Origin: Hydrotalea sp.
GTDB lineage: Bacteria > Pseudomonadota > Alphaproteobacteria > JASGCL01
Direction of reading: 5' to 3'
Length of the DNA stretch: 64,000 nt
Assembly: GCA_030054115.1 (NCBI GenBank)
Contig: JASGCL010000001.1
Coordinates: 48,788-112,787 of the forward strand
The stretch's first letter is position 1. Every line of letters begins with the position of its first letter. The notes under the pieces are model-generated. The model worked only from the letters and a program-made list of their open reading frames with translations. It was not told the DNA's origin and ran no database searches. The translations under genes were made by a program, and so were the position numbers. Below are positions 8-34,508 of this stretch, piece by piece.

Positions 8-1258
8 TTAAAAATAACGCAATCGGAGCTTGTAATGCTCAATCACCGACACGGCGGCAACCCCCGCCCAGGCCAACACCATGGCGCGTATCATGGCAAG
101 GCTCAAGGCCATCACGACGTCACCGCCATCGCCGGTTAAAAAATGCCCCATGCCATTCACCGCCACTGCCATGGTGCCATATTGGGCGAAGCCCTGCATC
201 GCCGTGGCGGTGCCCGCCCTTACGCGAAAATATTTTGTCGAACCGGCGAAGGCATTGCCAATGCCCATGCCATTGCCAAGCGTCGCCACCATCATCGGCA
301 CGGCCACCGCCCACACCTGGTGAATTTGCAATGTCGCCAACGCCCAGAGAATAAAAACCCCCAAGGTCGTAAGCGATACCCCAACCAACATCAGCAGATA
401 CCCCCCGACCCTGTCCTGTATAAGGTTATTGATGGTCGAGCCAACCAAAAACATCACCGCGGTCATGGTGAATATCAATCCAAATTGGTCGGGTTGCAAC
501 CCCAATTGCGTGTAGATAAAAGACGACGCACCGATGTAGGAACCAAAAAAAGCGAAGAAGCCAAACAACACCGCGCCATAGGCCAAAAAACCAAAATGCG
601 ATAAAATCAGCCAATAGGCTTTAAATTCGCCCAGCAGGCTTTTTTCCAATTGCTGTTCAGCGCGGTTTTTTTTCGGCGCGGTTTCGGGCAGGCGAAAGGC
701 AACATACAGCAATATCAAGCCGGCAAAAACGCTCAAGAAATAAAAACTAACCTGCCACACCAGGTATTTTTCAATGAAGCCACCAATCAAGGGCGCGACC
801 ATCGGCGATATCGAAACCACCATGCCGACGAATGAAAAAACCTTGCCCATTTGACTGCGTTCGGTGGTGTCGCGCGCGATGGTGCGGGCGGTGGTGTTGA
901 TAATGGCGGAGGCCACCCCCTGGGCCGCGCGGCCGATAACAAAAACCTCCACCGACCAGCTAAAACCAATCAGCAATGACACGGCAATATACATAACCAG
1001 GCCAATCAACAGCATGATGCGCCGACCGAACCGGTCGACCAAATTGCCGACAAACAAAAACGACCCGGCCAGGGCGATAAAATAATAACTCAACCCCTTA
1101 ACGGTTTGGGTTTTGTCGGTGTGAAAATATTCGGTAATTTTCGGCAGGCTGGGTAAAAAAATGTCGGTGCTGAGAAGCCCCATCATAATCAATAATGCTA
1201 TCAACCCAATATATTTATTGCCACCAGTAATTTTGCTAAGCAGAGACATCTCACCCAC
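8..1258 (-). CDS. MFS transporter (DHA1 / Bcr-CflA-like drug efflux family)
   Basis: 416-aa ORF with about 12 hydrophobic segments and the MFS motif-A-like loop GNLVDRFGRR between TM2 and TM3. The 3' end is near the window edge. Confidence 0.75.
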   Translation of the reverse strand: MGEMSLLSKITGGNKYIGLIALLIMMGLLSTDIFLPSLPKITEYFHTDKTQTVKGLSYYFIALAGSFLFVGNLVDRFGRRIMLLIGLVMYIAVSLLIGFSWSVEVFVIGRAAQGVASAIINTTARTIARDTTERSQMGKVFSFVGMVVSISPMVAPLIGGFIEKYLVWQVSFYFLSVFAGLILLYVAFRLPETAPKKNRAEQQLEKSLLGEFKAYWLILSHFGFLAYGAVLFGFFAFFGSYIGASSFIYTQLGLQPDQFGLIFTMTAVMFLVGSTINNLIQDRVGGYLLMLVGVSLTTLGVFILWALATLQIHQVWAVAVPMMVATLGNGMGIGNAFAGSTKYFRVRAGTATAMQGFAQYGTMAVAVNGMGHFLTGDGGDVVMALSLAMIRAMVLAWAGVAAVSVIEHYKLRLRYF

Positions 1259-1409
1259 CTCTAGATGATTGCCATTGACAAATCAAGTTGCCACGCCCGC
1301 GCCCGCAAAAAAAGTAGCAAAACCAACCGGCTTCGATTATAATTGCGCCATGAATTTATGAGAAAGTTATAAGGCAAAAACGAAGGTATTAAAAATAAAA
1401 CCCATCGCT

Positions 1410-1892
1410 TTGCCGAATCCGCCGCTGAAAAAAAACAACGCGCGTAACTCGATTTCGCCCGCGCCGCTTGCCGCGCGGCCACCCGCCCTTACAAAAAAAA
1501 CATTGCCACCTGCGCCACGGCGGCTAACAACCAATTACGCGCCGGTAACCATCGCGCCGCCGCCCGCCGTGCCCAACACCGTGCCAAATGGCACGATAAA
1601 AAAATCGCAAAAAAACCTGCCCATCGATGGTCGGCTTGACCTGCATGGCATGACGGCGGCCCAGGGCTTCACCGCGCTGGATAATTTTTTTTATAACATG
1701 CGGGCGGGCGGGCGGCGGCATTTGCTTATCATCACGGGCAAGGGCACCGGCGTCATGAAACACACCCTGCAACAATTTTTGGAACGGCACCACGGCATCA
1801 TCGCCAGCCACCAATTGGCCGACCCACGGCGCGGCGGCGACGGCGCGCACTACATCGTCCTAAAAAAATCGGCGATAAGTAAGCAAGTTTAA
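1410..1892 (+). CDS. Smr domain-containing protein
   Basis: C-terminal half carries an Smr-like motif (LDLHGMTAAQ ... LLIITGKGTGV). The N-terminus is Pro-rich and low complexity, so the true start may be internal. Confidence 0.55.
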   Translation: MPNPPLKKNNARNSISPAPLAARPPALTKKTLPPAPRRLTTNYAPVTIAPPPAVPNTVPNGTIKKSQKNLPIDGRLDLHGMTAAQGFTALDNFFYNMRAGGRRHLLIITGKGTGVMKHTLQQFLERHHGIIASHQLADPRRGGDGAHYIVLKKSAISKQV

Positions 1893-2237
1893 TTATCAAG
1901 GAATTGTCAGGGAATGACGGGAGAGGGGCTTTGGAGCAATTTTTTTACGCTACTACTTCAATTCGAAAAATGCCACATTGCCTGTCGGCGTGCTTCAGCC
2001 GCCGACGAGGGATAAAAATACGAACACCGCGACAGCGGTGGAGATATTTTTTGGGTGGGTTCGCCAACTCATCTTTTTATCCTCATATATTTTTTAATAT
2101 AAAAAACGTTACACGACCCCCCCCCTGGCTAAAGCACGCCGACGGGCAATGCGGCATCGCTATCTTCCATGCATTTTTTTTATCATTTGCCTTTTACCAT
2201 TGACAAGGTGCAAAAAATACCCTAAGCAAAAATCATC

Positions 2238-2375
2238 ATGGTTAAAAGAACATATCAACCAAGCAAATTGGTGCGCAAACGCCGCCACGGGTTCAGAACC
2301 CGCATGGCAACCCGCGACGGGCAAAAAATCCTGGCGCGCCGCCGCCGCCAGGGTCGCAAAAAATTATCGGCCTAA
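2238..2375 (+). CDS. rpmH: 50S ribosomal protein L34
   Basis: My own translation gives [45 protein letters not shown], the canonical L34 sequence. The 45-aa ORF is below the 60-aa cutoff of the ORF track. Confidence 0.9.
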
Positions 2376-2522
2376 ACGCCGTCATCAATTTGATGGGCTT
2401 GCCATAAGCTAAGCCATCGTTTGCATCGTCGCCAATGGTGCATGAAACCAGACCAAAACCTAGACCAACCCTAGACAAGGGCTTTTACCCCCCGCTAACA
2501 TTCATCAAAATTCTAAACTTCA

Positions 2523-2894
2523 TTGAAGCTAACCACTATCAAAAAACGAAGCGCGTTTTTGCACACGCAAAAACATGGCCTGGTTGTTAAAAAACCGCTC
2601 ATCTTGGTGGCGGCAACCGCCAATCGCAACAACGCGCCCACTATTGGCCCGCGGGTCGGCTTCACGGTTAGCAAAAAAATTGGCAAGGCCGTCACCCGCA
2701 ACAAAATTAGACGCCGGTTAAAAGTCATCAGCCGCGCTTACCTCGACCAATCGCCGGCCGAAACTTTACCTTTCGATTTTGTTTTCATCGCCACGCCAAA
2801 AACGGCGCGGGCGGGCTTCTTGCCCTTGCAGAATCAAGTGAAAGAAGCTATAGATGCCGTCATCAATCAATATCGGGACAATAAAATTTCTTAA
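2523..2894 (+). CDS. rnpA: Ribonuclease P protein component
   Basis: 123 aa, basic, with KKRSAFLHTQKHG near the N-terminus. Conserved rpmH-rnpA-yidC order. TTG start at 2523. Confidence 0.85.
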   Translation: MKLTTIKKRSAFLHTQKHGLVVKKPLILVAATANRNNAPTIGPRVGFTVSKKIGKAVTRNKIRRRLKVISRAYLDQSPAETLPFDFVFIATPKTARAGFLPLQNQVKEAIDAVINQYRDNKIS

Positions 2895-2924
2895 ATAACT
2901 TTCTAACATTTTGGGGAAAGAGCT

Positions 2925-4730
2925 ATGAATAACAAAAGCAACCTGCTGTTGGCCATTATCCTTTCCACCGTTATTATCGGTGCCTGGAGTTATTTTTTCC
3001 CCGCACCGAAACCACCCGCCACCCCGGCCGCAACGCCGGTCACCACCACAACCGCCGATACCACGGCCGGTAAAAAAACCGCCGCGCAAAAGGATGCGGT
3101 TATTAAACCCCGCGACCAGGCCCTGGCCGATAACCCGCGGGTGCTTATCGACAGCCCAACGATAAAGGGCAGTATCAACCTGCGCGGTTTGCGCTTTGAC
3201 GATATTGTTCTGAAACAATACACCAACGCGGTTGACGACCAATCGCCGGTGACCTTGCTGTCACCCAGCAACAGCGCTAATGGTTACGTCGTTGATTTGG
3301 GTTGGTTGAGCCGCAACGACCGCATCACCCTGCCGAATAGTGATAGTTTATGGACGGCGAATAAAAAAGTTTTAAAAAATGGCGACAATGTCACCCTGAC
3401 CTATAGTTCGGACGGCTTGATTTATAAACTGCTGGTCAGCCTCGACGACAATTACCTTTTCACCATCAAACAATCGGTGCAAAACATCGGCGTCACCAAC
3501 CAAGATATTGCATTTTATGGTTTGACAGCGCGATTTGGCGCGCCGCCGGTTACGGTCGGTAATGTGCGGGAGGGGCCGATGGTCATGCTGGATAAGAAAC
3601 TTACCCAAGAAACCTATGCCAAGATGATAAAAACCCCATTCCAGGGCTCGGGCAAAACCGGCTGGTTTGCCTTTTCTGATAAATATTGGCTGACCGCCCT
3701 GGTCCCCGATATCAGTGGCACGGCGCAGAACAGCAATAAACCAGCAACCACCGCCGACGACGCCACCGCGATACCCGCCAACCCCGACAGCAAACTCGCC
3801 AGCCGCATTACCTATGACAAGGGGGCGTCGCTGGGCCGTGGCCGTTACCAAGTTGATTACACCATGGATTACGATATTTTGCCGCGCCGCCATACGATTG
3901 AAAAAACACTTTATCTTTTTGTCGGGCCGAAAGACACCGGCATTATTAACGATTATGCGACCAGCAAAAATATCGACAAATTTAACCTGACTATCGATTA
4001 TGGTTGGCTTTACATACTGACCAAACCGATGGCCTGGTTGCTTCATTTCCTAAGCGATCAATTGCATTCGGTTGGGTTGGCGATTCTTGCCCTGACGGTG
4101 GTGGTGCGGTTGTTGCTGTTCCCCTTTGCCCAGCATTCATTTAAATCGATGGCGATGATGCGGAAACTCGCGCCAAAGGTCGAGGAATTAAAAAAACGCC
4201 ACAAAACATCGGCCGAGCAGTCGCAGGCGATGATGGCGTTGTATAAAAAAGAAGGCGTCAACCCGCTGGCCGGTTGCTTGCCGATGTTGATTCAAATTCC
4301 AGTATTTTTTGCCCTCTATCACGTCTTCAACATCTCTATCGAATTTCGCCACGCGCCATTTTTTGGCTGGATAAGCGACCTGTCGGTGCCGGATCCCTAT
4401 GGTTTATTGACCGGTTTTGGTTTGTTTCCATGGCAAGTGCCGGCAGTGTTGCATATTGTGAATATCGGCATCTGGCCCATCATCATGGGCTTTACCCTGT
4501 GGTTGCAACAAAAATTTAACCCACCCGCTTCCGACCCATTGCAACAAAAAATCTTCAGCTATTTCCCCTACATCTTTACCTTCATGCTGGGTTCGTCGCC
4601 GGCTGGCCTGGTTATTTATTGGGCGTGGAACAACGCCCTGTCGATATTGCAACAATATGTTATCAACCGCCGTTTGGGCATCCCAACCTACACGCCGTTT
4701 CGCACCGTGAAAAAAACGAGCAAATCGTAA
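2925..4730 (+). CDS. yidC: Membrane protein insertase YidC
   Basis: 601 aa with an N-terminal TM, a large periplasmic domain, and the C-terminal conserved 60-kDa inner-membrane-protein region (LLLFPF..., PLAGCLPMLIQIPVFFALY). GGGGAAAG ribosome-binding site 6 nt upstream. Confidence 0.95.
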   Translation: MNNKSNLLLAIILSTVIIGAWSYFFPAPKPPATPAATPVTTTTADTTAGKKTAAQKDAVIKPRDQALADNPRVLIDSPTIKGSINLRGLRFDDIVLKQYTNAVDDQSPVTLLSPSNSANGYVVDLGWLSRNDRITLPNSDSLWTANKKVLKNGDNVTLTYSSDGLIYKLLVSLDDNYLFTIKQSVQNIGVTNQDIAFYGLTARFGAPPVTVGNVREGPMVMLDKKLTQETYAKMIKTPFQGSGKTGWFAFSDKYWLTALVPDISGTAQNSNKPATTADDATAIPANPDSKLASRITYDKGASLGRGRYQVDYTMDYDILPRRHTIEKTLYLFVGPKDTGIINDYATSKNIDKFNLTIDYGWLYILTKPMAWLLHFLSDQLHSVGLAILALTVVVRLLLFPFAQHSFKSMAMMRKLAPKVEELKKRHKTSAEQSQAMMALYKKEGVNPLAGCLPMLIQIPVFFALYHVFNISIEFRHAPFFGWISDLSVPDPYGLLTGFGLFPWQVPAVLHIVNIGIWPIIMGFTLWLQQKFNPPASDPLQQKIFSYFPYIFTFMLGSSPAGLVIYWAWNNALSILQQYVINRRLGIPTYTPFRTVKKTSKS

Positions 4731-4768
4731 AATTTACAGCGCATCATTCATTGCCCCATTATTGAAGC

Positions 4769-5404
4769 ATGACAAAAAAATGGGAAAGTTATTGGCACGG
4801 CGGCTGGCAATTATTGGCGGTGGCGGCCGCACCCGAACAATTGCCGATGGGGCATTTGGCGGAGGTTGCCTTTTGGGGGCGGTCGAATGTTGGCAAATCA
4901 TCGTTGATTAACAACCTGGTGATGCAAAAAAATTTGGCACGGCAATCGAAAAGCCCGGGCCGAACCCAGGAATTATTTTTCTTTGAAAAAATATTTGGCA
5001 GTGGCGAGCGCGACCGGATGCCGTTTTTATTGGTCGATTTGCCGGGTTATGGTTTTGCCCGCGCCGCCCGCAGTAAAACCGAAATGTGGCAAGACACCAT
5101 CTTGGCTTACCTATCGACCCGCCCCAACCTGCGGCTGATGTGTTTGCTAATCGACGCGCGGCATGGGTTGAAAACCATCGATCTGGCGGCGATACAATTG
5201 TTGTTCGATTGCGGGGTGACGACCCAATTGATTTTTACAAAATGTGATAAGGTGCCAGAAAAATTATTAACCGCCGAAATAAAAAAAACCGAAAATGCGA
5301 TAAAAAAATTTGCCCATTGCTTGCCCAGCATCATCACCACCAGCGCGCACAGCAACCTGGGCAAGGGCGCGCTACAAAACACCATCGCCACCTTGTTGGG
5401 GTAA
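4769..5404 (+). CDS. engB: Ribosome biogenesis GTP-binding protein YihA/EngB
   Basis: 211 aa with G1 motif GRSNVGKSS, DLPGYG and TKCDK motifs. Conserved position downstream of yidC. Confidence 0.9.
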   Translation: MTKKWESYWHGGWQLLAVAAAPEQLPMGHLAEVAFWGRSNVGKSSLINNLVMQKNLARQSKSPGRTQELFFFEKIFGSGERDRMPFLLVDLPGYGFARAARSKTEMWQDTILAYLSTRPNLRLMCLLIDARHGLKTIDLAAIQLLFDCGVTTQLIFTKCDKVPEKLLTAEIKKTENAIKKFAHCLPSIITTSAHSNLGKGALQNTIATLLG

Positions 5405-5437
5405 TCGCCAACGATTGGTTTTTTGCTTGGCGTAAAA

Positions 5438-8209
5438 TTATGCCAGCACCAATTTTTTAATCGCCGCCATTGTATCATCGGCCACCGTGATGTTGCTTCC
5501 GCCCGCCATCTCTGTGGCTGGCAGGCTTCCGCCTGCCCTCTCTGTGGATGGCAGGCTTCCGCCCGCCATGGCAAAATCGGGGCGACCGCCGCCACTGCCG
5601 CCCAGCATTTTGCCGGCCATGGTGGCAATGTCGCCGGCCGAGATAGCTTGCCGCGCCGTGCCATTGACCGCAATGGCGACCGCGACCTTGCCATCGTCAA
5701 CCGCCAACAGGGCAATCACGCTGTTGGCAAGGTCAGGATTTTTTTTGATATTATCGATGATGGGTTTCAGGTCGCGGCCGGTAACGCCATCGATTTTTTT
5801 ACCCACATAGATAAAATCATGACTCGGGTGTTTTTCACCATCAGCCAGCGATAGATTTGATGCCGCCGCAATTTTTTTATCGGCTAACTCCTTGGCCAGT
5901 TTTTTGTTATTCGCCATCACCGCGTCATATTGCTGTTGCAGGGTTTTTATCATAGCTTGCTTTTCGATAATCTCAGTCGGCACCGGTGGAAATACACTCG
6001 CCTTATTTGCCGCTTTTATTTTTGCCTGCCACGCGTTTATTTCTATCTCCAATTTTTTATGCACCATCGCCTTGCCGGTTATGGCCGTAACGCGCCGCAC
6101 GCCCGACGCCACCGATTCTTCGCGCTCTATCATCAGATGTTCAATCTCGGCGACATCGGCCACGTGGGTGCCGCCGCATAATTCTATCGAATAAAAATGT
6201 TGCCGTTCGTTGTTCGCCGATTTATCGGTCGCCGCCCCCATGAAAACCACCCGCACCGCGTCGCCATATTTTTCACCGAACAGGGCAATCGCCCCCAACT
6301 GTTCTGCCGTCGGTTTGTCCATGGTTTTTGTTATCACCCGCCCGCCCCTAGCCACGCGGTCATTCACCGCCGATTCAATCTGGGCCAGGCGCGCCGCGTC
6401 AATCGCCTCGTGATGCGAAAAATCAAAACGCAAATGGTCGTTGGCGACCAACGAACCCTTTTGCGCAACATGCGAGCCCAGTTCCTGGCGCAATGCCTCG
6501 TGCAACAGATGGGTTGCCGAATGGTTGGCGCGCACGCCGTTGCGCCAGGCTTCATCGACTCGCGCTGAAACCTTATCGCCAATTTTTACCGCGCCGCGAT
6601 TTTCGGTTGCGGTAATATGGTGGACGATAATGCCCTGGTATTTTTTTGTGTCCTTCACCTGATATTGCACGCCGTTAATATCGAGCGTGCCGCGGTCGCC
6701 CTTTTGCCCGCCGGCCTCGCCATAAAACGGCGTTTGGTCAAGCACTAGCCAACAATCATCACCCGCCGGCAACTGCGCCATCGATTGCAATTCGTTATCA
6801 AGCAGGGCAATCACCGCGCCGTCGCCCGATAATCCGTCATAGCCCAAAAATTTTGTCTCGCCATGTTTTTCCTTCAACGCAAACCAAATTGGTGCTTGCT
6901 TGTTATCGCCCGACCCGGCCCAGGATTCTTTGCCGCGTTTTTTTTGTTCGGCCATCGCCTTATCAAAACCCGCGACCTCGACCCCGCGCCCATCGCCACG
7001 CATGATGTCGATGGTTAAATCGAGCGGGAAACCAAAGGTGTCATAAAGTTGAAAGGCCACCGCCCCAGGCAAATCCTTTCCCGCCGGAATTTTTTCAATT
7101 TCCTTATTCAACAACCCCATGCCACGCGCCAACAATTCTTCGAACTGTTCTTCCTCGCGCAAAAAAACTTGGTTGATATTTTTTTGCTCCTTGCTCAATT
7201 CGTTGTAATGCCCACCCATCACATCGATTAAGCTCGGCAACAGCCGCCCAAACAATGGCCGGTCGTTGCCCAACATGTGGGCGTGGCGCATGGCGCGGCG
7301 CATGATGCGGCGCAGGACGTAACCCCGTCCCTCGTTCGATGGCGCAACCCCGTCGGCAACCAAAAACGCCATGGCGCGCAAATGGTCGGCGATAACGCGG
7401 AACGAGGCGATGGTTTTCTCGGTTGGTTTTTGGCGAAGCGCGGCCTCAACCGCGGCAATCAACGGCGTAAACAAACTGGTGTCGTAATTGTTCGCAACGC
7501 CCTCCAGCACGGCGGTGATACGCTCCAGCCCCATGCCGGTATCGATAGACGGGCGGGGTAAATCTATCCGCTTGCCGGCGGCCTGCATTTCATATTGCAT
7601 GAAAACCAAATTCCAAATTTCGACAAAGCGGTCGCCGTCTTGGTCTTTGCTCCCCGGTGGGCCGCCAAAAATTTTATCGCCATGGTCATAAAAAATTTCG
7701 GAGCATGGCCCGCAGGGTCCGGTGTCGCCCATTTGCCAAAAATTGTCGTTGGTGGCGATGCGGATAATTTTATCATCGGGGAGGCCGGCAATTTTTTTCC
7801 ACAGGTTATAGGCAGACTCGTCATCGTGATAGACCGTGACGCAAAGTTTATCGCGCGGCAATTTCAGCTCTTGGCTGACAACTTGCCACGCATGGTGAAT
7901 CGCCTGTTCTTTAAAATAATCGCCGAACGAAAAATTGCCGAGCATTTCAAAAAAACTATGGTGGCGCGCGGTGTAGCCAACATTGTCCAAATCGTTATGC
8001 TTGCCGCCGGCACGCACGCATTTTTGCGCGGTGGTGGCGGTTTGATAATCACGTTTTTCCAAACCCAAAAATATATTTTTAAATTGCACCATGCCCGAAT
8101 TGACGAACATCAATGTCGGGTCGTCGTGCGGCACCAACGACGACGACGGCACCACACGGTGGCCGGTGTTTTTAAAATAATCAAGAAATATTTTGCGAAT
8201 ATCGGTCAT
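5438..8209 (-). CDS. alaS: Alanine--tRNA ligase
   Basis: 923 aa with class II aaRS catalytic core, editing domain (HSATHLLHEAL) and C-terminal DHHA1-like region. The C-terminus contains an extra repeat-encoded insertion (see repeat feature). Confidence 0.95.
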   Translation of the reverse strand: MTDIRKIFLDYFKNTGHRVVPSSSLVPHDDPTLMFVNSGMVQFKNIFLGLEKRDYQTATTAQKCVRAGGKHNDLDNVGYTARHHSFFEMLGNFSFGDYFKEQAIHHAWQVVSQELKLPRDKLCVTVYHDDESAYNLWKKIAGLPDDKIIRIATNDNFWQMGDTGPCGPCSEIFYDHGDKIFGGPPGSKDQDGDRFVEIWNLVFMQYEMQAAGKRIDLPRPSIDTGMGLERITAVLEGVANNYDTSLFTPLIAAVEAALRQKPTEKTIASFRVIADHLRAMAFLVADGVAPSNEGRGYVLRRIMRRAMRHAHMLGNDRPLFGRLLPSLIDVMGGHYNELSKEQKNINQVFLREEEQFEELLARGMGLLNKEIEKIPAGKDLPGAVAFQLYDTFGFPLDLTIDIMRGDGRGVEVAGFDKAMAEQKKRGKESWAGSGDNKQAPIWFALKEKHGETKFLGYDGLSGDGAVIALLDNELQSMAQLPAGDDCWLVLDQTPFYGEAGGQKGDRGTLDINGVQYQVKDTKKYQGIIVHHITATENRGAVKIGDKVSARVDEAWRNGVRANHSATHLLHEALRQELGSHVAQKGSLVANDHLRFDFSHHEAIDAARLAQIESAVNDRVARGGRVITKTMDKPTAEQLGAIALFGEKYGDAVRVVFMGAATDKSANNERQHFYSIELCGGTHVADVAEIEHLMIEREESVASGVRRVTAITGKAMVHKKLEIEINAWQAKIKAANKASVFPPVPTEIIEKQAMIKTLQQQYDAVMANNKKLAKELADKKIAAASNLSLADGEKHPSHDFIYVGKKIDGVTGRDLKPIIDNIKKNPDLANSVIALLAVDDGKVAVAIAVNGTARQAISAGDIATMAGKMLGGSGGGRPDFAMAGGSLPSTERAGGSLPATEMAGGSNITVADDTMAAIKKLVLA
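5487..5570. repeat. 30-bp tandem repeat (about 2.5 copies) in-frame inside the alaS 3' region
   Basis: Unit gcttccgcc[c/t]gcc[a/c]tctctgtgg[c/a]tggcag occurs twice in full plus a partial third copy. On the coding strand it encodes the duplicated peptide AGGSLP(S/A)TE(R/M). Confidence 0.8.
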
Positions 8210-28723: not shown

Positions 28724-29863
28724 TTAGGCCAATAAAATTTTTCCATCGTGCGCGACCAATGAACCCTTGATAATATCATCGGTCAGGTTAATCACCAATT
28801 TTTTTTCATCATTATGCCATAAATTGCCAATAAAATTGACAATGTTTTTTGCAAACAGGGCGGAGGCCGAGGCCGGCAGAAGCCGCGCCAAATTCGCCCC
28901 CGGGACAATTTTCACGCCATTGCCGGTTTCAACAATTTTATCGGGCGCATTGCCCGCGACATTACCACCCGATTCAACCGCCATATCAACCACCACCGCG
29001 CCGGTTTTTATTTTTTTCACCATCTCCGCCGTCAATAATTGCGGCGCGGCGCGCCCGGGGATAAGGGCGGTGGTTATGACAATATCAACCTGCGGCAGGG
29101 TTTCCATTATCAAGGCCTGCTGTTTTTTTTGATAGGCCGCGCTCATCGGCTTGGCGTAGCCGCCGGCGGTTTGCGCGTTTTTGAATTCTTTATCCATCAC
29201 CGCCAAAAATTGCCCGCCGAGGCTTTCGACCTGTTCCTTGGTATCGGGGCGCACGTCGGTCGCCATGACCACGCCGCCCAATCGTTTCGCGGTGGCAATT
29301 GCCTGCAACCCCGCGACCCCCACCCCCATGATTAAAAACTTCGCGGGTTTTAATGTGCCGGCGGCGGTCATCATCATTGGCGCGGCCTGACCATAATGTT
29401 GCAGGGCGAGGAGCACCGCACGATACCCCGCCAGGTTCGATTGCGACGATAAAATATCCATATTTTGCGCACGCGAAATACGCGGAATCATTTCCAGGGC
29501 GAAGGCCGAAATTTTTTGGCCAGCCAGCACCTGCAACAATGCGTTATCTTGCCGCGCGTTCAGCGGCGCGATGAGCCACGCCCCGGGTTTCATTTTTTTC
29601 ACCATCGCCGCGGTTGGTGCCATGACCGAGGTAACAATATCCGCACCGGCCAGGGCGGAATCATTATCGGCGATAATATCGCCGCCAATTTTTTTATAAT
29701 CATCGTCAGAAAAACCGGCCGCCGCACCGGCGTTTTTCACCACCGCAATCGACAGATTGTTTTTTTCGCGCAACAATTTCAACGATTCGGGGGTCGCGCT
29801 GACGCGTGTTTCATGGTCGTCACCCCAGCCACCGACCATGTTGTTTAATGCGGACAATTTCAT
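28724..29863 (-). CDS. pntAA: NAD(P) transhydrogenase subunit alpha part 1 (dI, NAD(H)-binding)
   Basis: 379 aa. Alanine-dehydrogenase/PNT-like domain with the Rossmann motif IMGVGVAGLQAIATAKRLGG. Confidence 0.9.
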   Translation of the reverse strand: MKLSALNNMVGGWGDDHETRVSATPESLKLLREKNNLSIAVVKNAGAAAGFSDDDYKKIGGDIIADNDSALAGADIVTSVMAPTAAMVKKMKPGAWLIAPLNARQDNALLQVLAGQKISAFALEMIPRISRAQNMDILSSQSNLAGYRAVLLALQHYGQAAPMMMTAAGTLKPAKFLIMGVGVAGLQAIATAKRLGGVVMATDVRPDTKEQVESLGGQFLAVMDKEFKNAQTAGGYAKPMSAAYQKKQQALIMETLPQVDIVITTALIPGRAAPQLLTAEMVKKIKTGAVVVDMAVESGGNVAGNAPDKIVETGNGVKIVPGANLARLLPASASALFAKNIVNFIGNLWHNDEKKLVINLTDDIIKGSLVAHDGKILLA

Positions 29864-30123
29864 GTGACAACACTAGGCAATCTGGTAAAATTTTTCAATT
29901 GCTAATATGAAAAAAAATTTCTTAAGCGTAATCATTTTTTTTCATCATAAAAAAAGAGGAATAAAAACCAAATGCAAACCCACCATTGCAAATAAAATTA
30001 AACTTAATAATCAACGATATAAACATCGGCGGTGGGGTTGTAATATAATTGATTTGGTTTAGAATCCCCCAAGGTAATTAACCGGCAATAAAATATCACA
30101 AAAAAAACCCTAGGAGAACGCGC

Positions 30124-30249
30124 ATGAATTTTTTAAAAAAATTATTAGCAAGACGTATCTTTCGCAAAAAAAATTTCATGAACATCATCCGGTTATTTTT
30201 TACCATGACCGCGATATTGTCGGTCGCGCAGGGTTTGGCGGCGGCGTAA
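30124..30249 (+). CDS. Putative 41-aa small hydrophobic peptide
   Basis: MNFLKKLLARRIFRKKNFMNIIRLFFTMTAILSVAQGLAAA, with an AGGAGA Shine-Dalgarno 6 nt upstream. Basic N-terminus and hydrophobic C-terminus. Speculative. Confidence 0.2.
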   Translation: MNFLKKLLARRIFRKKNFMNIIRLFFTMTAILSVAQGLAAA

Positions 30250-30431
30250 AAACGCGCGATATACAACCAACCGCGTGGTATTCAAGACGCCTGTCGCCAC
30301 CCTGCCCTCGGCAATAATTGCAAGGTTGATGCTATCCAGCGGGGTGTTTTAGATTCATTTTTTAACTGCGAGCGGTTACAAAAAACACGCTTATAGCTTG
30401 TTTTCTTGGGAGAGATGTTTAATAGAAAGGC

Positions 30432-31070
30432 GTGTCTTTATTTGATAATTTAAATCCTGCTAGTTTTCTAAAATCCTTGTTAGATAACAAGGACGCTGTG
30501 TTTTTCATCATGGCTTTTATTCTGCCGGGTTTTATTTGCGTTAAGTTTTATGAAATTTTGACTGGCCAAAAACGAACTGACGCTAGCCAATTTAGAATGG
30601 ATTTTTTTGCTTACAGCTTAATAAATAATTTTTTTGCTTTGCTATTGGATATAACAATTAATCATTTTCTTGCGTCAAAAACAGATATTGTTAGCTACCT
30701 GCTCTATTTCTTATATTTTGTCATCTTGCCAATTTGTTTAACTTATATCCTTTATTTATCTAGGAAAGCTAACTGGTCTATATGGTTGTTTCAGCATCCT
30801 GATGCTTATGCCTGGGACCATGCCTTTAAGAATGCTAAAAATGGATGTTTTGTCATCGTAACTTTAAACGATGGTAAAAAATATGCTGGGAAATATATTA
30901 GCAAACCACAAGAGAAAAAAACATCCTTTGCCGCCTCTGGTTATTTAGCAAAAGACATATACCTTGCCGAACAATGGGAGTTAAATAAAAATGCCAGCTT
31001 TAAGAAAAAAACTAATCAAACTGGCGGAATATATTTATCAGACATTAAGACTATTGAATTTTTTGAGTAA
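30432..31070 (+). CDS. Hypothetical membrane protein (N-terminal multi-TM region, C-terminal soluble domain)
   Basis: 212 aa, AT-rich. Three to four hydrophobic helices in residues 20-110, then a soluble C-terminal part (CFVIVTLNDGKKYAGKYIS ... GGIYLSDIKTIEFFE). No family recognised. Confidence 0.55.
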   Translation: MSLFDNLNPASFLKSLLDNKDAVFFIMAFILPGFICVKFYEILTGQKRTDASQFRMDFFAYSLINNFFALLLDITINHFLASKTDIVSYLLYFLYFVILPICLTYILYLSRKANWSIWLFQHPDAYAWDHAFKNAKNGCFVIVTLNDGKKYAGKYISKPQEKKTSFAASGYLAKDIYLAEQWELNKNASFKKKTNQTGGIYLSDIKTIEFFE

Positions 31071-31111
31071 AAGTGATAAATTTTGTAATATAATTTAAAG
31101 GAGCGTTAACA

Positions 31112-31280
31112 ATGACTGGAAAATTAATATATACTAAAGATGGACATACACCGCCGAAGTCTACGGGTAACAACGACCAACCAAATAATATAAAAATGAT
31201 ACCCACTCGCGAGGGGTATTTGCCTTTTGGACATACGCCACAAGGGCGAGTCATTGAAGTAAAGCCCCCCAAAACACGTT
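31112..31280 (+). CDS. Putative 55-aa small protein
   Basis: MTGKLIYTKDGHTPPKSTGNNDQPNNIKMIPTREGYLPFGHTPQGRVIEVKPPKTR, with a strong AAAGGAG Shine-Dalgarno 8 nt upstream. Contains an internal repeat (DGHTPPK / FGHTPQG). Not in the ORF track because it is under 60 aa. Confidence 0.35.
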
Positions 31281-31320
31281 AGAATTTTCGGGTGGGTTCG
31301 CGGATAAGATTTTTTATAAA

Positions 31321-31358
31321 AAAAAGGGCGGTTATTACTAACCGCCCTTTTTTATTTT
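31321..31358. terminator. Strong bidirectional rho-independent terminator
   Basis: aaaaAGGGCGGTTAttacTAACCGCCCTttttttattttt: perfect 10-bp stem, 4-nt loop, with an A-run before and a T-run after. It terminates both the small plus-strand ORFs and convergent aroC. Confidence 0.8.
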
Positions 31359-31471
31359 TCTTGAAACTTCTGCGTATTATTAAACGCTCATAACGTAGCT
31401 ATATCGTCAGACGAACACTGCGTCAGCAGTTTTCGTAATTTAAATTGTCAAATCGCGGAGCGATTTTTTTA

Positions 31472-32563
31472 TCAAATAACTTCTCCACACTGCCCGCGAT
31501 GCAATAATAAATGGTCGAGGATGGTTATCGCCATCATCGCCATGGTTATCGGCACGGCGCGAATCGCAACGCATGGGTCGTGTCGCCCCTTCGTCACAAT
31601 GTCGGTGTTGTCGCCATTGGTGGTCACGGTTTTTTGCGGGATAAGGATACTGCTGGTCGGTTTTATCGCCACCCGCACCATAATATCTTGGCCGGTGCTG
31701 ATGCCGCCCAATATGCCGCCGGCGTGGTTCGATAAAAATTCAACCTCACCTTTTTTATTTGCTTGCATCTCATCATTGTTGTCGGTGCCCTCCATCCCCG
31801 CGACATTCATGCCGTCGCCAATCGCCACCGCCTTCACCGCGTTTATCGACATCATGGCGCTTGCCAAATCGGCCGATAATTTGCCGTAAATCGGCGCGCC
31901 AATGCCCGCCGGCACGCCGCGCGCCACCACCTGAACCATGCCGCCAACCGACGAACCTTTTTTCCTTATGCTGTCTAAATAATCGGCAAAGGTTGCGACG
32001 ATTTTTTTATCGGGGGTGTAAAAATCATTGTTCCACACGCCGCCCCAATCGTAATTTTTTTCGTCGCTGTGGTGCCTGCCCATTTGGATAAGCCCGGCAT
32101 CAATGCCATAATCTTTGCCCAATATATGTTGCAACACCTGGTGCGCCACCGCCCCCACCGCCACCCGCATCGCCGTTTCGCGCGCCGACGACCGACCGCC
32201 ACCGCGATAATCGCGCAGGCCGTATTTTTGTTGATACGTATAATCAGCATGGCCCGGGCGAAATTTTTGCGCAATCTCGCCATAATCTTTCGACCGTTGG
32301 TCTTGGTTTTCAATAACCATGACAATCGGCGTGCCGGTGGTAACGCCGTCAAATAGCCCGGAAACAATTTTTACCTTATCCTCCTCCTGCCGTTGCGTCG
32401 TGAAACGGCTTTGCCCGGGGCGACGGCGGTCAAGCCATTGTTGCACCATGGCTTCATCAATTTTTATACGCGGCGGGCACCCGTCAATCACCGCGCCAAT
32501 CATCACCCCGTGGCTTTCGCCAAAGGTGGTGAAACGAAACAAACGGCCAAAACTATTCGACAT
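31472..32563 (-). CDS. aroC: Chorismate synthase
   Basis: 363 aa. N-terminal FGESHG and overall conservation match chorismate synthase. Confidence 0.95.
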
Positions 32564-33797: not shown

Positions 33798-34508
33798 ATG
33801 AAAAAGCATTTTAAGCAAGCTTTATTTTTAGCTGGTGGTCTGTTTGTATTACTAGCGGGTGACAATGGCCTTTATATAACCCAAGCGCAGGCGCAAGCGA
33901 ACAATGCGGGTAACAGATTCTTCATCAGCGCCGCGCCACAATTTTCATACAGCAATTTTATTGGTATCGGCTGGGGTGGTGGTGTATCGCTGGGCACGAC
34001 CAACGACCGTCGTACCGACGCCTTTAATGTCGATTACCAAAACATGTCGCAAACCTTTGACGCTGGCGGCGACATCAGCAATTTATTAAAAAGCATTCCC
34101 GGGGTTAACCTCAACGTGGACGCCAACGCCAGCGCGACCATGAAAACCCAATTTGCCGCCATAACCTATGATTACGTTGCCAAATTGGAATATGACCAGT
34201 TTGTTGGCTTGATTGGCACCGGCGCAGGGATTGAGGGTTGGATTCTGCACGTAACCGCCGCCGCCGTGGCCAATGCCACGGCCACCGTGTCGGGCGGTGG
34301 GCAAACCCAAACCCAAACCCAATCACAATCAAGCGGCACCGATAAGGAAGTAATCCTTGGCGGGTTATTATTGACGCCGCGCATTGGTTTTGAATGGAAC
34401 GCCACCGATTTATTAGCCCTTGGCATGAACATACGTGGCTTTATCGATTTGCCGGCATTTCCCCTGTCGCGCGGCACGATCGACGTAACGGCAAAATTAA
34501 CATTCTAA
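33798..34508 (+). CDS. Secreted/outer-membrane beta-barrel-like protein, paralog A
   Basis: 236 aa with signal peptide. Gly-rich alternating pattern and a C-terminal Phe, as in OMP beta-barrels. Paralogous to the next gene (IGIGWGGGVSLGTTNDRRTDAFNVDY vs LGIGVGGGISIGLDSGDKTDAGNIDF, and LLTPRIGFEW vs LLTPRVGVEW). Confidence 0.5.
   Translation: MKKHFKQALFLAGGLFVLLAGDNGLYITQAQAQANNAGNRFFISAAPQFSYSNFIGIGWGGGVSLGTTNDRRTDAFNVDYQNMSQTFDAGGDISNLLKSIPGVNLNVDANASATMKTQFAAITYDYVAKLEYDQFVGLIGTGAGIEGWILHVTAAAVANATATVSGGGQTQTQTQSQSSGTDKEVILGGLLLTPRIGFEWNATDLLALGMNIRGFIDLPAFPLSRGTIDVTAKLTF
34302..34331. repeat. In-frame hexanucleotide microsatellite (CAAACC)x3 followed by (CAATCA)x2 inside paralog A
   Basis: caaacccaaacccaaacccaatcacaatca encodes QTQTQTQSQS in a predicted surface loop. 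Confidence 0.6.

Follow-up and report, generated by a model that had tools for sequence, protein, structure and literature searches.

The AT-rich islet between pntAA and aroC in the window (the whole stretch of 64,000 nt analysed here) holds a gene for a DUF6338 membrane protein followed by a gene for a small, basic partner. Partners of this kind (Pro/Gly/Gln-rich, basic, and disordered) directly follow the DUF6338 genes of Proteobacteria, Clostridia, plasmids, and phages. Variability among related genomes and gene neighbourhoods elsewhere lead us to favour, tentatively and with somewhat less than even confidence, a joint reading. The slot between pntAA and aroC in this alphaproteobacterial lineage would house a hypervariable cassette of two genes, of which the islet is one allele, and the pair would be a membrane-acting conflict module (phage defence, exclusion, abortive infection, or addiction-type).

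An earlier note had delimited an AT-rich islet of three small ORFs at this site. The composition holds (GC 0.352 against 0.53-0.54 in pntAA and aroC; 0.29-0.34 within the islet and 0.50-0.58 in its flanks), as do the coordinates of the first two ORFs, the second with a GTG start. The third ends at 31282 rather than 31280 and encodes 56 rather than 55 aa. The features are as follows.

29864..31471, no strand: variable cassette slot, from the pntAA start codon to the aroC stop codon (1608 bp, GC 0.352)
30124..30249, + strand: 41-aa ORF with a basic N-terminus and a hydrophobic C-terminus; doubtful gene
30432..31070, + strand: DUF6338 (PF19865) gene, 212 aa, GTG start, Pfam match
30489..30767, + strand: membrane part of three long helices (residues 20-44, 51-79, and 86-112), predicted from the AlphaFold2 model and hydropathy
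30810..31067, + strand: predicted cytoplasmic Sm/LSm/Hfq-like small beta-barrel (residues 127-212), one helix and bent strands
31112..31282, + strand: 56-aa partner, basic and disordered, with three G-[YH]-x-P motifs (GHTP, GYLP, GHTP) and a KPPKTR C-terminus
31141..31152, + strand: 12-nt repeat copy 1, TGGACATACACC, coding for (D)GHTP; repeat family D18
31228..31239, + strand: 12-nt repeat copy 2, TGGACATACGCC, coding for (F)GHTP; repeat family D18
31320..31353, no strand: bidirectional intrinsic terminator common to the cassette and convergent aroC, with a perfect 15-bp stem and a 4-nt loop

The DUF6338 protein and its partner class

The 212-aa protein, for which no homolog family had been recognised, belongs to Pfam DUF6338 (PF19865). 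It scores 80.9 bits against a cut-off of 26.5 (E 1.3e-22), and its residues 22-211 align to profile positions 7-200 of 205, nearly the full length. Against a profile built on 74 members, of which the window protein is one, the score is 163.9 bits. P32, G33, S62, W128, D129, and G153 are invariant in the corresponding alignment, so that the window protein carries the family's conserved residues: P-G in the first helix, S in the second, W-D ahead of the barrel, and G within it. Its length is typical of stand-alone members (~200 aa), and it represents a divergent alphaproteobacterial branch with 23-34% identity to most aligned members; the closest homolog (P0002) shares 42%. The gene is single-copy in the window, and a profile search returned 3393 family representatives at E<=1e-3. 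PHROGs and NCBIfam gave no match for the protein, and the sources covered by a literature search for PF19865 assign it no function, fold, or partner.

The start codon deserves comment. A Shine-Dalgarno had been reported before each ORF, which holds for the 41-aa ORF (a good one); that of the 212-aa ORF is badly spaced, with AAAGG 1 nt upstream of the GTG. Alternative starts are a TTG at 30477 and a GTG at 30498, from which databases list a 190-aa form. Compared with the allele of one relative (L006), codons 8-22 show six synonymous and three conservative changes, which supports the long form. The resulting extended N-terminal helix is otherwise found in the L006 allele only.

In an AlphaFold2 model (mean pLDDT 87.5), three membrane helices precede an Sm/Hfq-like barrel at the C-terminus, in agreement with the multi-helix N-terminus and beta-rich C-domain first seen in the sequence. 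Hydropathy peaks fall at residues 22-40 and 86-104, with positive loops at 45-56 and beyond residue 109; an N-out/C-in topology is predicted. The C-domain comprises an N-terminal helix and a strongly bent five-strand barrel that superposes on solved Sm-fold proteins, the arrangement that characterises this fold, and structurally it comes closest to the RNA-binding proteins Hfq, LSm, and Sm. It departs from these in being tethered to three membrane helices, in an insertion between strands 2 and 3 with a conserved SFASS motif, and in that no relationship with Hfq or LSm can be detected at the sequence level.

The partner ORF starts 42 nt past the DUF6338 stop codon and encodes a hydrophilic protein (GRAVY -1.09) with a net charge of +5. 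Its internal DGHTP/FGHTP repeat, noticed earlier, is real and extends to the DNA as the 12-nt copies at 31141 and 31228; it is best read as a degenerate form of the G-[YH]-x-P motif. Two or more motifs of this type have a probability of 0.002 given the protein's composition, and the strict G[YH]QP form is missing. A homolog search by word index, with the 56-aa protein as query, returned a self-match only. PHROGs, PADLOC, and NCBIfam gave no match for the ORF, nor did Pfam for any of eight partner proteins scanned.

We defined a GYQP partner class by position (same strand, start within about 60 nt after the DUF6338 stop), by size and composition (40-95 aa, hydrophilic, basic), and by sequence (at least one G-[YHF]-x-P motif and a PP-K/R-type C-terminal tail). 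The window partner has the position, size, charge, motifs, and tail of this class, and occupies the same slot as partners at other loci. It is homologous to a 54-aa ORF in two relatives (L003 and L005), with a local score of 68 that none of 5000 shuffles reached (p<=2e-4). Against the family HMM, the 54-aa ORF scores 19-21 bits (E 3e-4 to 1e-3), and the window partner 6.4 bits, unreported at E<=1 in a search of 14,432 segments. Since only the L003/L005 homolog scores significantly, the window partner's place in the class is probably transitive, and the protein itself a weak family member.

Conserved co-occurrence of the membrane protein and the miniprotein in other genomes, proposed earlier as a check, is borne out. 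G[YH]QP occurs in 18 of the 22 sequence windows directly downstream of DUF6338 and in 5 of 864 background windows (Fisher 1.6e-29). The partner HMM, trained without the window's lineage, matched at E<1e-3 only slots downstream of DUF6338 among the 14,432 six-frame segments, held-out loci included. In the reciprocal direction, all seven plasmid matches to a partner protein adjoin a DUF6338 gene (7/7). The loci were located with a tighter Clostridia-type alignment; the broad alignment (A1) had no sufficiently conserved stretch. Partner genes number one to three per locus, in tandem, and some variants are TM-anchored, with a basic stretch after the helix. Natural fusions of DUF6338 and partner also exist (P0262, P0197, P0180, and P0139), and an AlphaFold2 model of one gives the tail a pLDDT of 51-67, without confident docking on the barrel.

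Part of this class has been detected experimentally. In P. stutzeri ATCC 14405, the DUF6338 gene Pstu14405_RS12030 forms an operon with SEP1, SEP5, and SEP2, three Pro-rich small proteins detected by mass spectrometry, which that study viewed as possible new genes confined to P. stutzeri (PMC10433244). These proteins follow DUF6338, are basic and proline-rich, and carry PPPPKK-like tails, much as the window partner ends in KPPKTR and the L006 partner in RPPPPPPTKRT. They belong to a poly-proline type, the window partner to the G-[YH]-x-P type. The P. stutzeri proteins appear to be one subclass of a partner class that spans several phyla. A literature search for GYQP itself returned SARS-CoV-2 spike papers only.

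Allele exchange in the pntAA-aroC slot

Two related alphaproteobacterial genomes (L005 and L006) share the layout of pntAA, DUF6338, small ORF, and aroC. Their DNA identity of ~97% ends at the aroC stop codon and restarts ~43 nt before the pntAA ATG, and no DNA similarity is found inside the slot. At the protein level, PntAA is 96.8% and AroC 99.2% identical between the two, against 35% for DUF6338, and the partners cannot be aligned. In the window allele, the first 48 aa of DUF6338 are 72% identical to L006, and the Sm part shares 62.5% identity with L005, which also carries the homolog of the window's partner. Judged from these alignments, the window allele is a mosaic.

L003 and L005 differ by 13 synonymous and 5 non-synonymous changes in DUF6338, and by 5 synonymous and 2 non-synonymous changes, with no indels, in the small ORF. 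These counts show purifying selection on both genes within an allele type.

Such comparisons modify the idea of an acquired islet. The islet is no one-off acquisition, because related genomes have DUF6338 pairs in the same slot; what stands is a cassette that is hypervariable between near-identical genomes. The earlier note had held that syntenic conservation in related species as core genes would speak against its reading. Synteny is present in form (the same slot) but not in spirit, since what the slot contains is exchanged between genomes and does not descend with them as a core gene would.

The three-ORF module is reduced to two genes, without the 41-aa ORF. A gene finder predicts this ORF in L001 and L002, whose sequences are identical to the window, and it has no family match in Pfam, PHROGs, PADLOC, or NCBIfam. 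No counterpart was found in L003, L005, or L006, nor in any other DUF6338 locus examined, and in two related genomes the spacer measures only ~135-300 bp and contains none. Its membership in the conserved module is not supported, and it probably lies outside. As a candidate type I toxin-like peptide it was discarded because it shows no conservation at all.

Possible functions of the pair

The neighbourhoods considered amount to about 15 independent contexts rather than a genome-wide statistic of enrichment. One operon type reads ResIII, methylase, DUF6338, partner, and then HEPN, and AbiEii, Abi_alpha, and PDC-S32 occur in the same operons. Further pairs adjoin, or share operons with, TIR and caspase genes, SIR2 and an Eco57I-type methylase, a nucleotidyltransferase and SLATT (an adjacent nucleotidyltransferase at one plasmid locus only), an MPN/JAB gene, and RelE/MazF toxin-antitoxin genes and DUF4062. 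Mobile carriers include plasmids, Tn7-like cargo, a phage in which the pair sits between the terminase and portal genes, and a phage-plasmid; a P2-like phage-plasmid has a disrupted DUF6338 gene. The phage-borne loci are L050, L053, and L073. An Abi, exclusion, or toxin-immunity role at the membrane, as first proposed, thus gains circumstantial support from mobile-element contexts, defence neighbours, and hypervariability.

Under the conflict-module reading, DUF6338 would be a membrane effector that oligomerises via its Sm-like domain. The abundant disordered partner may bind the cytoplasmic barrel through its short linear motifs, and would either hold the effector inactive or serve as bait. 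Upon infection, the partner might be lost, sequestered, or cleaved, which would release a membrane-perturbing activity. That the effector would be encoded first and the inhibitor second, and that the small proteins are constitutively abundant, suits other roles as much as this scheme. Weighing against the scheme are the housekeeping flanks of the slot, loci without evident defence neighbours, the lack of a PADLOC, PHROGs, or NCBIfam match, the low HMM score of the window partner, and the undocked tail in the modelled fusion.

Comparable logic is known from OptE of the Panoptes system, an S-2TM-beta effector that a constitutively made ligand keeps inactive; when a phage protein removes this ligand, OptE disrupts the membrane (PMC12657218). 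Like DUF6338, the S-2TM-beta effectors Cap15 (CBASS) and OptE combine N-terminal membrane helices with a small soluble ligand-binding beta-barrel. DUF6338 is not placed among them, with no PADLOC match and no cyclase in the window. Toxin-antitoxin and abortive-infection pairs provide a second comparison. The DUF6338 pair is likewise a two-gene, translationally coupled operon on mobile elements, hypervariable, situated beside toxin-antitoxin/Abi genes, and equipped with a small disordered second component; it differs in having no known toxin or antitoxin domain and a partner without a DNA-binding domain.

A broader proposal, which we consider doubtful as a whole, is that DUF6338 and its GYQP/proline-rich partners constitute an anti-phage or exclusion system of two components that is widespread and has so far gone unrecognised. 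Here, a membrane-tethered Sm-like ring effector would be paired with a fast-diversifying disordered mini-protein, at times tandem or fused, as its inhibitory ligand or bait, with alleles exchanged between strains at fixed chromosomal slots. If true, it would supply a first fold, an obligate partner, and a likely role for a DUF of ~3,400 diverse sequence clusters. Proline-rich proteins taken as species-specific would become a fast-evolving cross-phylum partner class, many of them missing from annotations. At two genes and <1 kb, the pair would also be a compact candidate for assays of phage defence or exclusion, which its natural alleles, fusions, and tandem variants could guide, and the slot would be a clean case of allele swapping at a fixed chromosomal position in a small-genome alphaproteobacterium.

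Among the alternatives, a function outside conflict fares best, and we regard it as rather improbable. DUF6338 would then be an accessory envelope, stress, or transport-related protein, the small partners ordinary regulatory subunits, and the variability a result of relaxed constraint. The slot is filled in all three related genomes, one of only 1.63 Mb, which suggests retention, and P. stutzeri makes its small proteins in abundance during normal growth (PMC10433244). Two loci (L004 and L051) have no obvious defence neighbours. PADLOC (2023) likewise offered no matching model for the window protein and six other DUF6338 proteins, with one weak AbiEi match (E 0.0045). Relaxed constraint, however, is unlike the clean cassette replacement between 97% identical flanks and the mosaic alleles, and the purifying selection on both genes within an allele type also speaks against it. 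So does the repeated presence of the pair inside restriction-modification, Abi, HEPN, TIR, and toxin-antitoxin operons and mobile elements.

Peptide production with immunity has, in our estimate, a slim chance. The cationic proline-rich proteins would be the active products (PrAMP-type or intracellular effectors) and DUF6338 the immunity or export component. Tandem divergent small genes and strain-level hypervariability recall bacteriocin/RiPP precursor loci, and the authors of the P. stutzeri study remarked that so much proline might be an antimicrobial signature and that DUF6338 is found in biosynthetic clusters (PMC10433244). Yet the small proteins carry no leader or signal sequence, and their loci show no consistent link to a modifying enzyme, protease, or ABC exporter. 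C-terminal fusions to the cytoplasmic domain and TM-anchored variants place the motifs inside the cell, and the cell lysate that yielded the P. stutzeri peptides was not a membrane fraction (PMC10433244).

An equally slight prospect is given to a membrane-tethered Hfq-like RNA-binding protein, in which the Sm-like ring would bind RNA at the membrane and the basic partner would be an RNA-binding cofactor or competitor. The structural matches to RNA-binding proteins and the strongly basic partner are in its favour. The reading of a recently acquired three-gene islet, with the 41-aa peptide as toxin or immunity component, draws on the AT-rich composition and on a gene-finder call with a good Shine-Dalgarno, and is very improbable and largely refuted by the absence of this ORF from the relatives and all other loci examined and by the pairs that fill the same slot in related species.

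Borders and signals of the slot

The cassette sits between housekeeping flanks in the window and its relatives; in the window these are pntAA/AB/B, aroC, and an EamA gene, with pntAA and aroC identified by AlaDh_PNT and Chorismate_synt matches. No integrase or att-like repeats were found at its flanks, in the window or its relatives, no direct or inverted repeats at its borders suggest att sites or target duplications, and no tRNA occurs in the 64,000 nt. With such flanks and no tRNA, carriage by a (pro)phage, which defines prophage-encoded superinfection exclusion, was not found in the window. Promoter-like sites in the islet are as frequent as in shuffled sequence (6 against 6.0 expected), and the structure of the 5' leader (30250-30440) is not unusual (z -0.85). 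An Rfam search of the islet gave sub-threshold matches only, all but two of them in the terminator region.

The terminator itself had been described as a perfect bidirectional one with a 10-bp stem at 31321-31358. Its bidirectional and perfect nature is retained, and its extent is corrected to a 15-bp stem at 31320-31353. Nine pairs form a G/C-rich core, six A-U pairs complete the stem, and the whole lies between an A-run and a T-run. The hairpin has the G/C-rich stem, the U-tract on both strands, and the convergent genes that define an intrinsic bidirectional terminator, and it folds at -29.3 kcal/mol (z -4.1), a stability that none of 200 shuffles equalled.

The islet and its DUF6338 gene

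The gap between pntAA and aroC spans 1608 bp and is AT-rich: its GC content is 0.352, whereas the flanking genes, both Pfam-confirmed, have 0.53-0.54. The composition, the three ORFs and the internal DGHTP/FGHTP repeat described in the earlier note all hold, the last also being visible in the DNA as a 12-nt repeat. The small protein has 56 residues rather than 55, and the terminator is real and strong, with a stem of 15 bp at 31320-31353 instead of 10 bp at 31321-31358.

28724-29863, minus strand: pntAA, divergent flank
30124-30249: 41-aa ORF
30432-31070: DUF6338 ORF, 212 aa, GTG start
31112-31282: partner ORF, 56 aa
31320-31353: terminator, perfect 15-bp stem, A-run before and T-run after (-29.3 kcal/mol, z -4.1)
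31472-32563, minus strand: aroC, convergent flank

Rfam searches of the islet region returned sub-threshold matches only, nearly all on or around the terminator hairpin.

The 212-aa protein, previously assigned to no recognisable homolog family, aligns almost end to end with Pfam DUF6338 (PF19865), at 80.9 bits (cut-off 26.5), and its gene is a new member of this catalogued, uncharacterised family. A 74-member profile searched against 1.84 billion proteins recovered, with E<=1e-3, 3393 representatives of clusters formed at 50% identity, nearly all stand-alone proteins of about 200 aa. PADLOC, PHROGs and NCBIfam contain no model covering DUF6338 itself; a viral structure library yielded one full-length structural match, from a siphovirus. 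The AlphaFold model points to a C-terminal Sm-like barrel, a fold assignment that appears undescribed in the literature searched. The hydropathy profile and the placement of charges favour an N-out, C-in orientation, which would turn this barrel towards the cytoplasm. Public databases call a 190-aa form from GTG 30498. Relative to the allele of L006, a related alphaproteobacterial genome, codons 8-22 of the long form carry six synonymous and three conservative changes, a pattern that supports translation of the 212-aa form.

Several minor observations concern the window. The 190-aa protein (P0001) is deposited at NCBI under a 'Hydrotalea sp.' MAG (Bacteroidota); because the flanking genes, like the sole close relatives, are alphaproteobacterial, the contig was probably mis-binned. 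An exact 13-nt repeat, TTGTAATATAATT, resembles an extended -10 box and occurs upstream of the 41-aa ORF (30038-30050) and between the DUF6338 stop and the small-ORF start (31083-31095). Its copies could be promoters, yet its frequency is about that expected by chance in AT-rich DNA. A patch of GC ~0.44 (30200-30350) lies within the AT-rich spacer and covers the 41-aa ORF at its 3' end; the relatives lack this patch, and it has no significant RNA structure. Further along, a 236-aa ORF (33798-34508) without a Pfam match may encode an outer-membrane beta-barrel protein, given its signal-peptide-like N-terminus and C-terminal Phe.

Allele exchange at the pntAA-aroC slot

A genome scan for close PntAA relatives identified only L005 and L006 (a 1.63-Mb chromosome), both from uncultured Alphaproteobacteria. 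Both share the window's layout of pntAA, divergent DUF6338 gene, small ORF and convergent aroC. The metagenomic contig L003 has a matching layout, but ends before aroC. Between L005 and L006, conservation of the flanks contrasts with divergence of the genes they enclose.

Identity between L005 and L006 across the locus
PntAA protein: 96.8%
AroC protein: 99.2%
Flanking DNA: about 97%
DUF6338 protein: 35%
Partner proteins: not alignable

Their DNA similarity breaks off precisely at the aroC stop codon, restarting ~43 nt before the pntAA ATG. The window's allele is, as judged by alignment, a mosaic of L006-like and L005-like parts. The first 48 residues of its DUF6338 protein share 72% identity with L006 (DNA 83% over 113 nt), while its Sm-like part shares 62.5% with L005 (DNA 77% over 111 nt), the same allele that carries the homologue of its partner. 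All three cassettes have a GC content of 0.31-0.35 between flanks of 0.49-0.54. Within one allele type, the DUF6338 genes of L003 and L005 differ by 13 synonymous and 5 non-synonymous changes. The swap, the mosaic and these changes together point to old functional alleles traded by recombination at a fixed slot.

The islet is thus best read as a swappable cassette rather than a one-off acquisition; the earlier view of an acquired islet was right in that the cassette is exchanged between genomes, but the slot is filled likewise in L005 and L006. Such swapping at this locus appears undescribed in the literature searched. Searches for an integrase, a tRNA or att-like repeats found none. Only the window's species has the 41-aa ORF with its 568-bp spacer, and there is no support for this ORF as part of the module. 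The terminator lies in a 190-nt spacer (31283-31471) between the small ORF and aroC; in L005 a distance of 15 nt separates the end of the small ORF from the aroC stop (4875-4889), and in L006 the two overlap by 4 nt (5006-5009), leaving no space for a terminator.

The small-protein partner of DUF6338

The only paper naming DUF6338 in our literature search reports three abundant, basic, proline-rich small proteins from P. stutzeri that were detected by digest-free proteomics and judged species-restricted; their genes and a DUF6338 gene are predicted to form one operon (PMC10433244). The DUF6338 loci compared here come from metagenomes, a viral contig, plasmids, a phage-plasmid and long assemblies. 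Where enough downstream sequence was available, nearly all had one to three same-strand ORFs of 40-95 aa, beginning within ~60 nt of the DUF6338 stop and encoding hydrophilic, basic proteins. They have between one and three G-[YH]-Q-P motifs and then a type-specific end, either a PP..GSxV..P tail (Clostridia type) or PPKKP/PPRKP (Proteobacteria). G[YH]QP is present in 18/22 windows downstream of DUF6338 versus 5/864 background windows (Fisher 1.6e-29).

An HMM built from 19 training partners, with the window's lineage left out, was searched against 14,432 six-frame segments (905,000 residues). At E<1e-3 it matched only the slot immediately downstream of DUF6338, including held-out loci and ORFs overlooked by annotators. 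In the reverse test, 7/7 plasmid matches to an Acinetobacter partner adjoined a DUF6338 gene. Pfam has no family covering these proteins, and a cross-phylum partner of DUF6338 appears undescribed in the literature searched; it revises the species-specific view of the P. stutzeri peptides.

The window's 56-aa protein, with motifs GHTP, GYLP and GHTP and a C-terminal KPPKTR, can be placed in this class as a degenerate member. Alone it scores only 6.4 bits against the HMM, but it shows clear homology to a 54-aa ORF present in L003 and L005 (local score 68, reached by 0/5000 shuffles), and the HMM recognises that ORF with E-values of 3e-4 to 1e-3. The 56-aa protein therefore belongs to the class by position, by motif and by transitive homology. 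The L003 and L005 copies of the 54-aa ORF are separated by five synonymous and two non-synonymous substitutions, without indels; in the adjacent intergenic DNA 12% of positions differ, with ten indels.

In several of the longer family members the partner is fused to DUF6338. P0262 runs on in frame from the domain into '...MSDNERKDRLQEGYQP...KGYQPPPSPPP...', P0197 ends in '...HGYQPSVSASSPPPPSPPP...', the tails of P0180 and P0139 read 'RGYQ/RGYT...NPPK...', and that of P0164 is long and rich in proline. Some could be sequencing or gene-calling artefacts, though several are independent. The order of parts follows gene order, which argues that the partner would act at the cytoplasmic C-domain. The predicted P0262 tail has low confidence (pLDDT 51-67), consistent with disorder, and the model places it on the barrel in no confident docked pose.

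Other partner types were also observed. A poly-proline type with a K/R tail ('...NRPPPPPPTKRT' in L006, 5006-5161, minus strand) takes the place of GYQP partners in a subset of alleles, and the GYQP HMM misses it (-0.4 bits). The small proteins of P. stutzeri (CP036186.1, 2666728-2667116), published as possible new genes, have '...PPPPKK' ends and probably belong to it. In a third type (L004, 10687-11284; L047, 900-1154) an N-terminal membrane helix (P-I/V-W-I-A-L-I...) precedes a basic stretch, followed in L004 by DGYQPKP or SGFQPKP; this helix points to membrane anchoring of some partners. In many proteobacterial partners (L053, L054, L056, L071) PPKKP/PPRKP forms the exact C-terminus, directly before the stop codon; a C-terminal proline in this position slows translation termination. 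Unannotated GYQP ORFs occur on several GenBank/RefSeq plasmids and one assembly (L054 ~4601-4738, L056 ~3771-3950, L057 4585-4770, L058 4610-4804, L069 7585-7767), where neighbouring copies are annotated 'hypothetical protein'.

Genomic neighbourhoods and possible function

Across the loci gathered, the surroundings of the pair are enriched in mobile elements and defence genes.

Neighbourhoods of the DUF6338-partner pair
L064-L070 (three distinct Clostridia-type proteins, ~700-7600): pair begins 2-7 nt after a ResIII-helicase / variable gene / N6_N4-methylase operon; relaxase, integrase and HipA genes in the vicinity
L064-L068: HEPN_LA2681 gene immediately after the pair; AbiEii, Abi_alpha and PADLOC candidate family PDC-S32 in the operons
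L059-L063: pair abuts DUF4062-STAND-TPR, ThsB-type TIR and caspase genes
L055, Proteus plasmid: pair, then TIR and caspase; cargo immediately after Tn7-like tnsD/tnsE
L057, Mesorhizobium plasmid: pair after nucleotidyltransferase and SLATT genes
L054 / L072, Acinetobacter plasmids: pair after an MPN/JAB gene, or among RelE toxin-antitoxin pairs beside a DUF4062 gene
L056, Fluviibacter plasmid: MazF near the pair
L038: pair between Eco57I-type methylase and SIR2_2 genes
L050, phage fragment: pair between large terminase and SPP1-type portal
L053: pair on a Klebsiella phage-plasmid
L073: disrupted copy near integrase and CI genes of a P2-like element

The pair couples a membrane protein bearing a small beta-barrel with a co-translated, disordered, motif-rich partner that is sometimes duplicated, fused or membrane-anchored, and the cassette diversifies strongly through allele exchange. 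From this we infer, tentatively and at a little under even chances, a conflict module. Sm- and SH3-type small beta-barrels commonly bind short linear peptides or RNA, and the partner motifs may bind the Sm-like barrel, which would drive oligomerisation of the membrane part. Infection would remove the partner through sequestration, proteolysis or synthesis shut-off, and the freed effector would perturb the membrane, so that infection is aborted or excluded. This specific gating model we rate considerably less probable than the broad reading. A characterised precedent for its logic is OptE of Panoptes, a 2TM and beta-barrel effector that is inactive while a constitutively made ligand is present and activated once a phage protein depletes it (PMC12657218), although DUF6338 is not a member of OptE's family.

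A non-conflict accessory function at the membrane is unlikely given the contexts listed; nothing defence-related surrounds the L004 and L051 copies. It is improbable that the locus encodes a peptide with its immunity protein, and equally so that DUF6338 is a membrane-tethered RNA-binding protein, a role within the known repertoire of such barrels. The earlier note's guess at function pointed to the right general area, but its three-gene acquired islet, which included the unsupported 41-aa ORF, is very improbable.

The ResIII / methylase / pair arrangement of L064-L070, which spans three distinct Clostridia-type lineages and includes HEPN_LA2681 in L064-L068, looks like a larger composite system. 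The pair also recurs beside TIR and caspase (Peptidase_C14) or DUF4062 genes in the unrelated hosts Proteus, Clostridia and Acinetobacter (L055 4835-6203, L059 11107-12488, L072 7002-7952), which could mean that these genes are functionally linked instead of sharing islands by chance.
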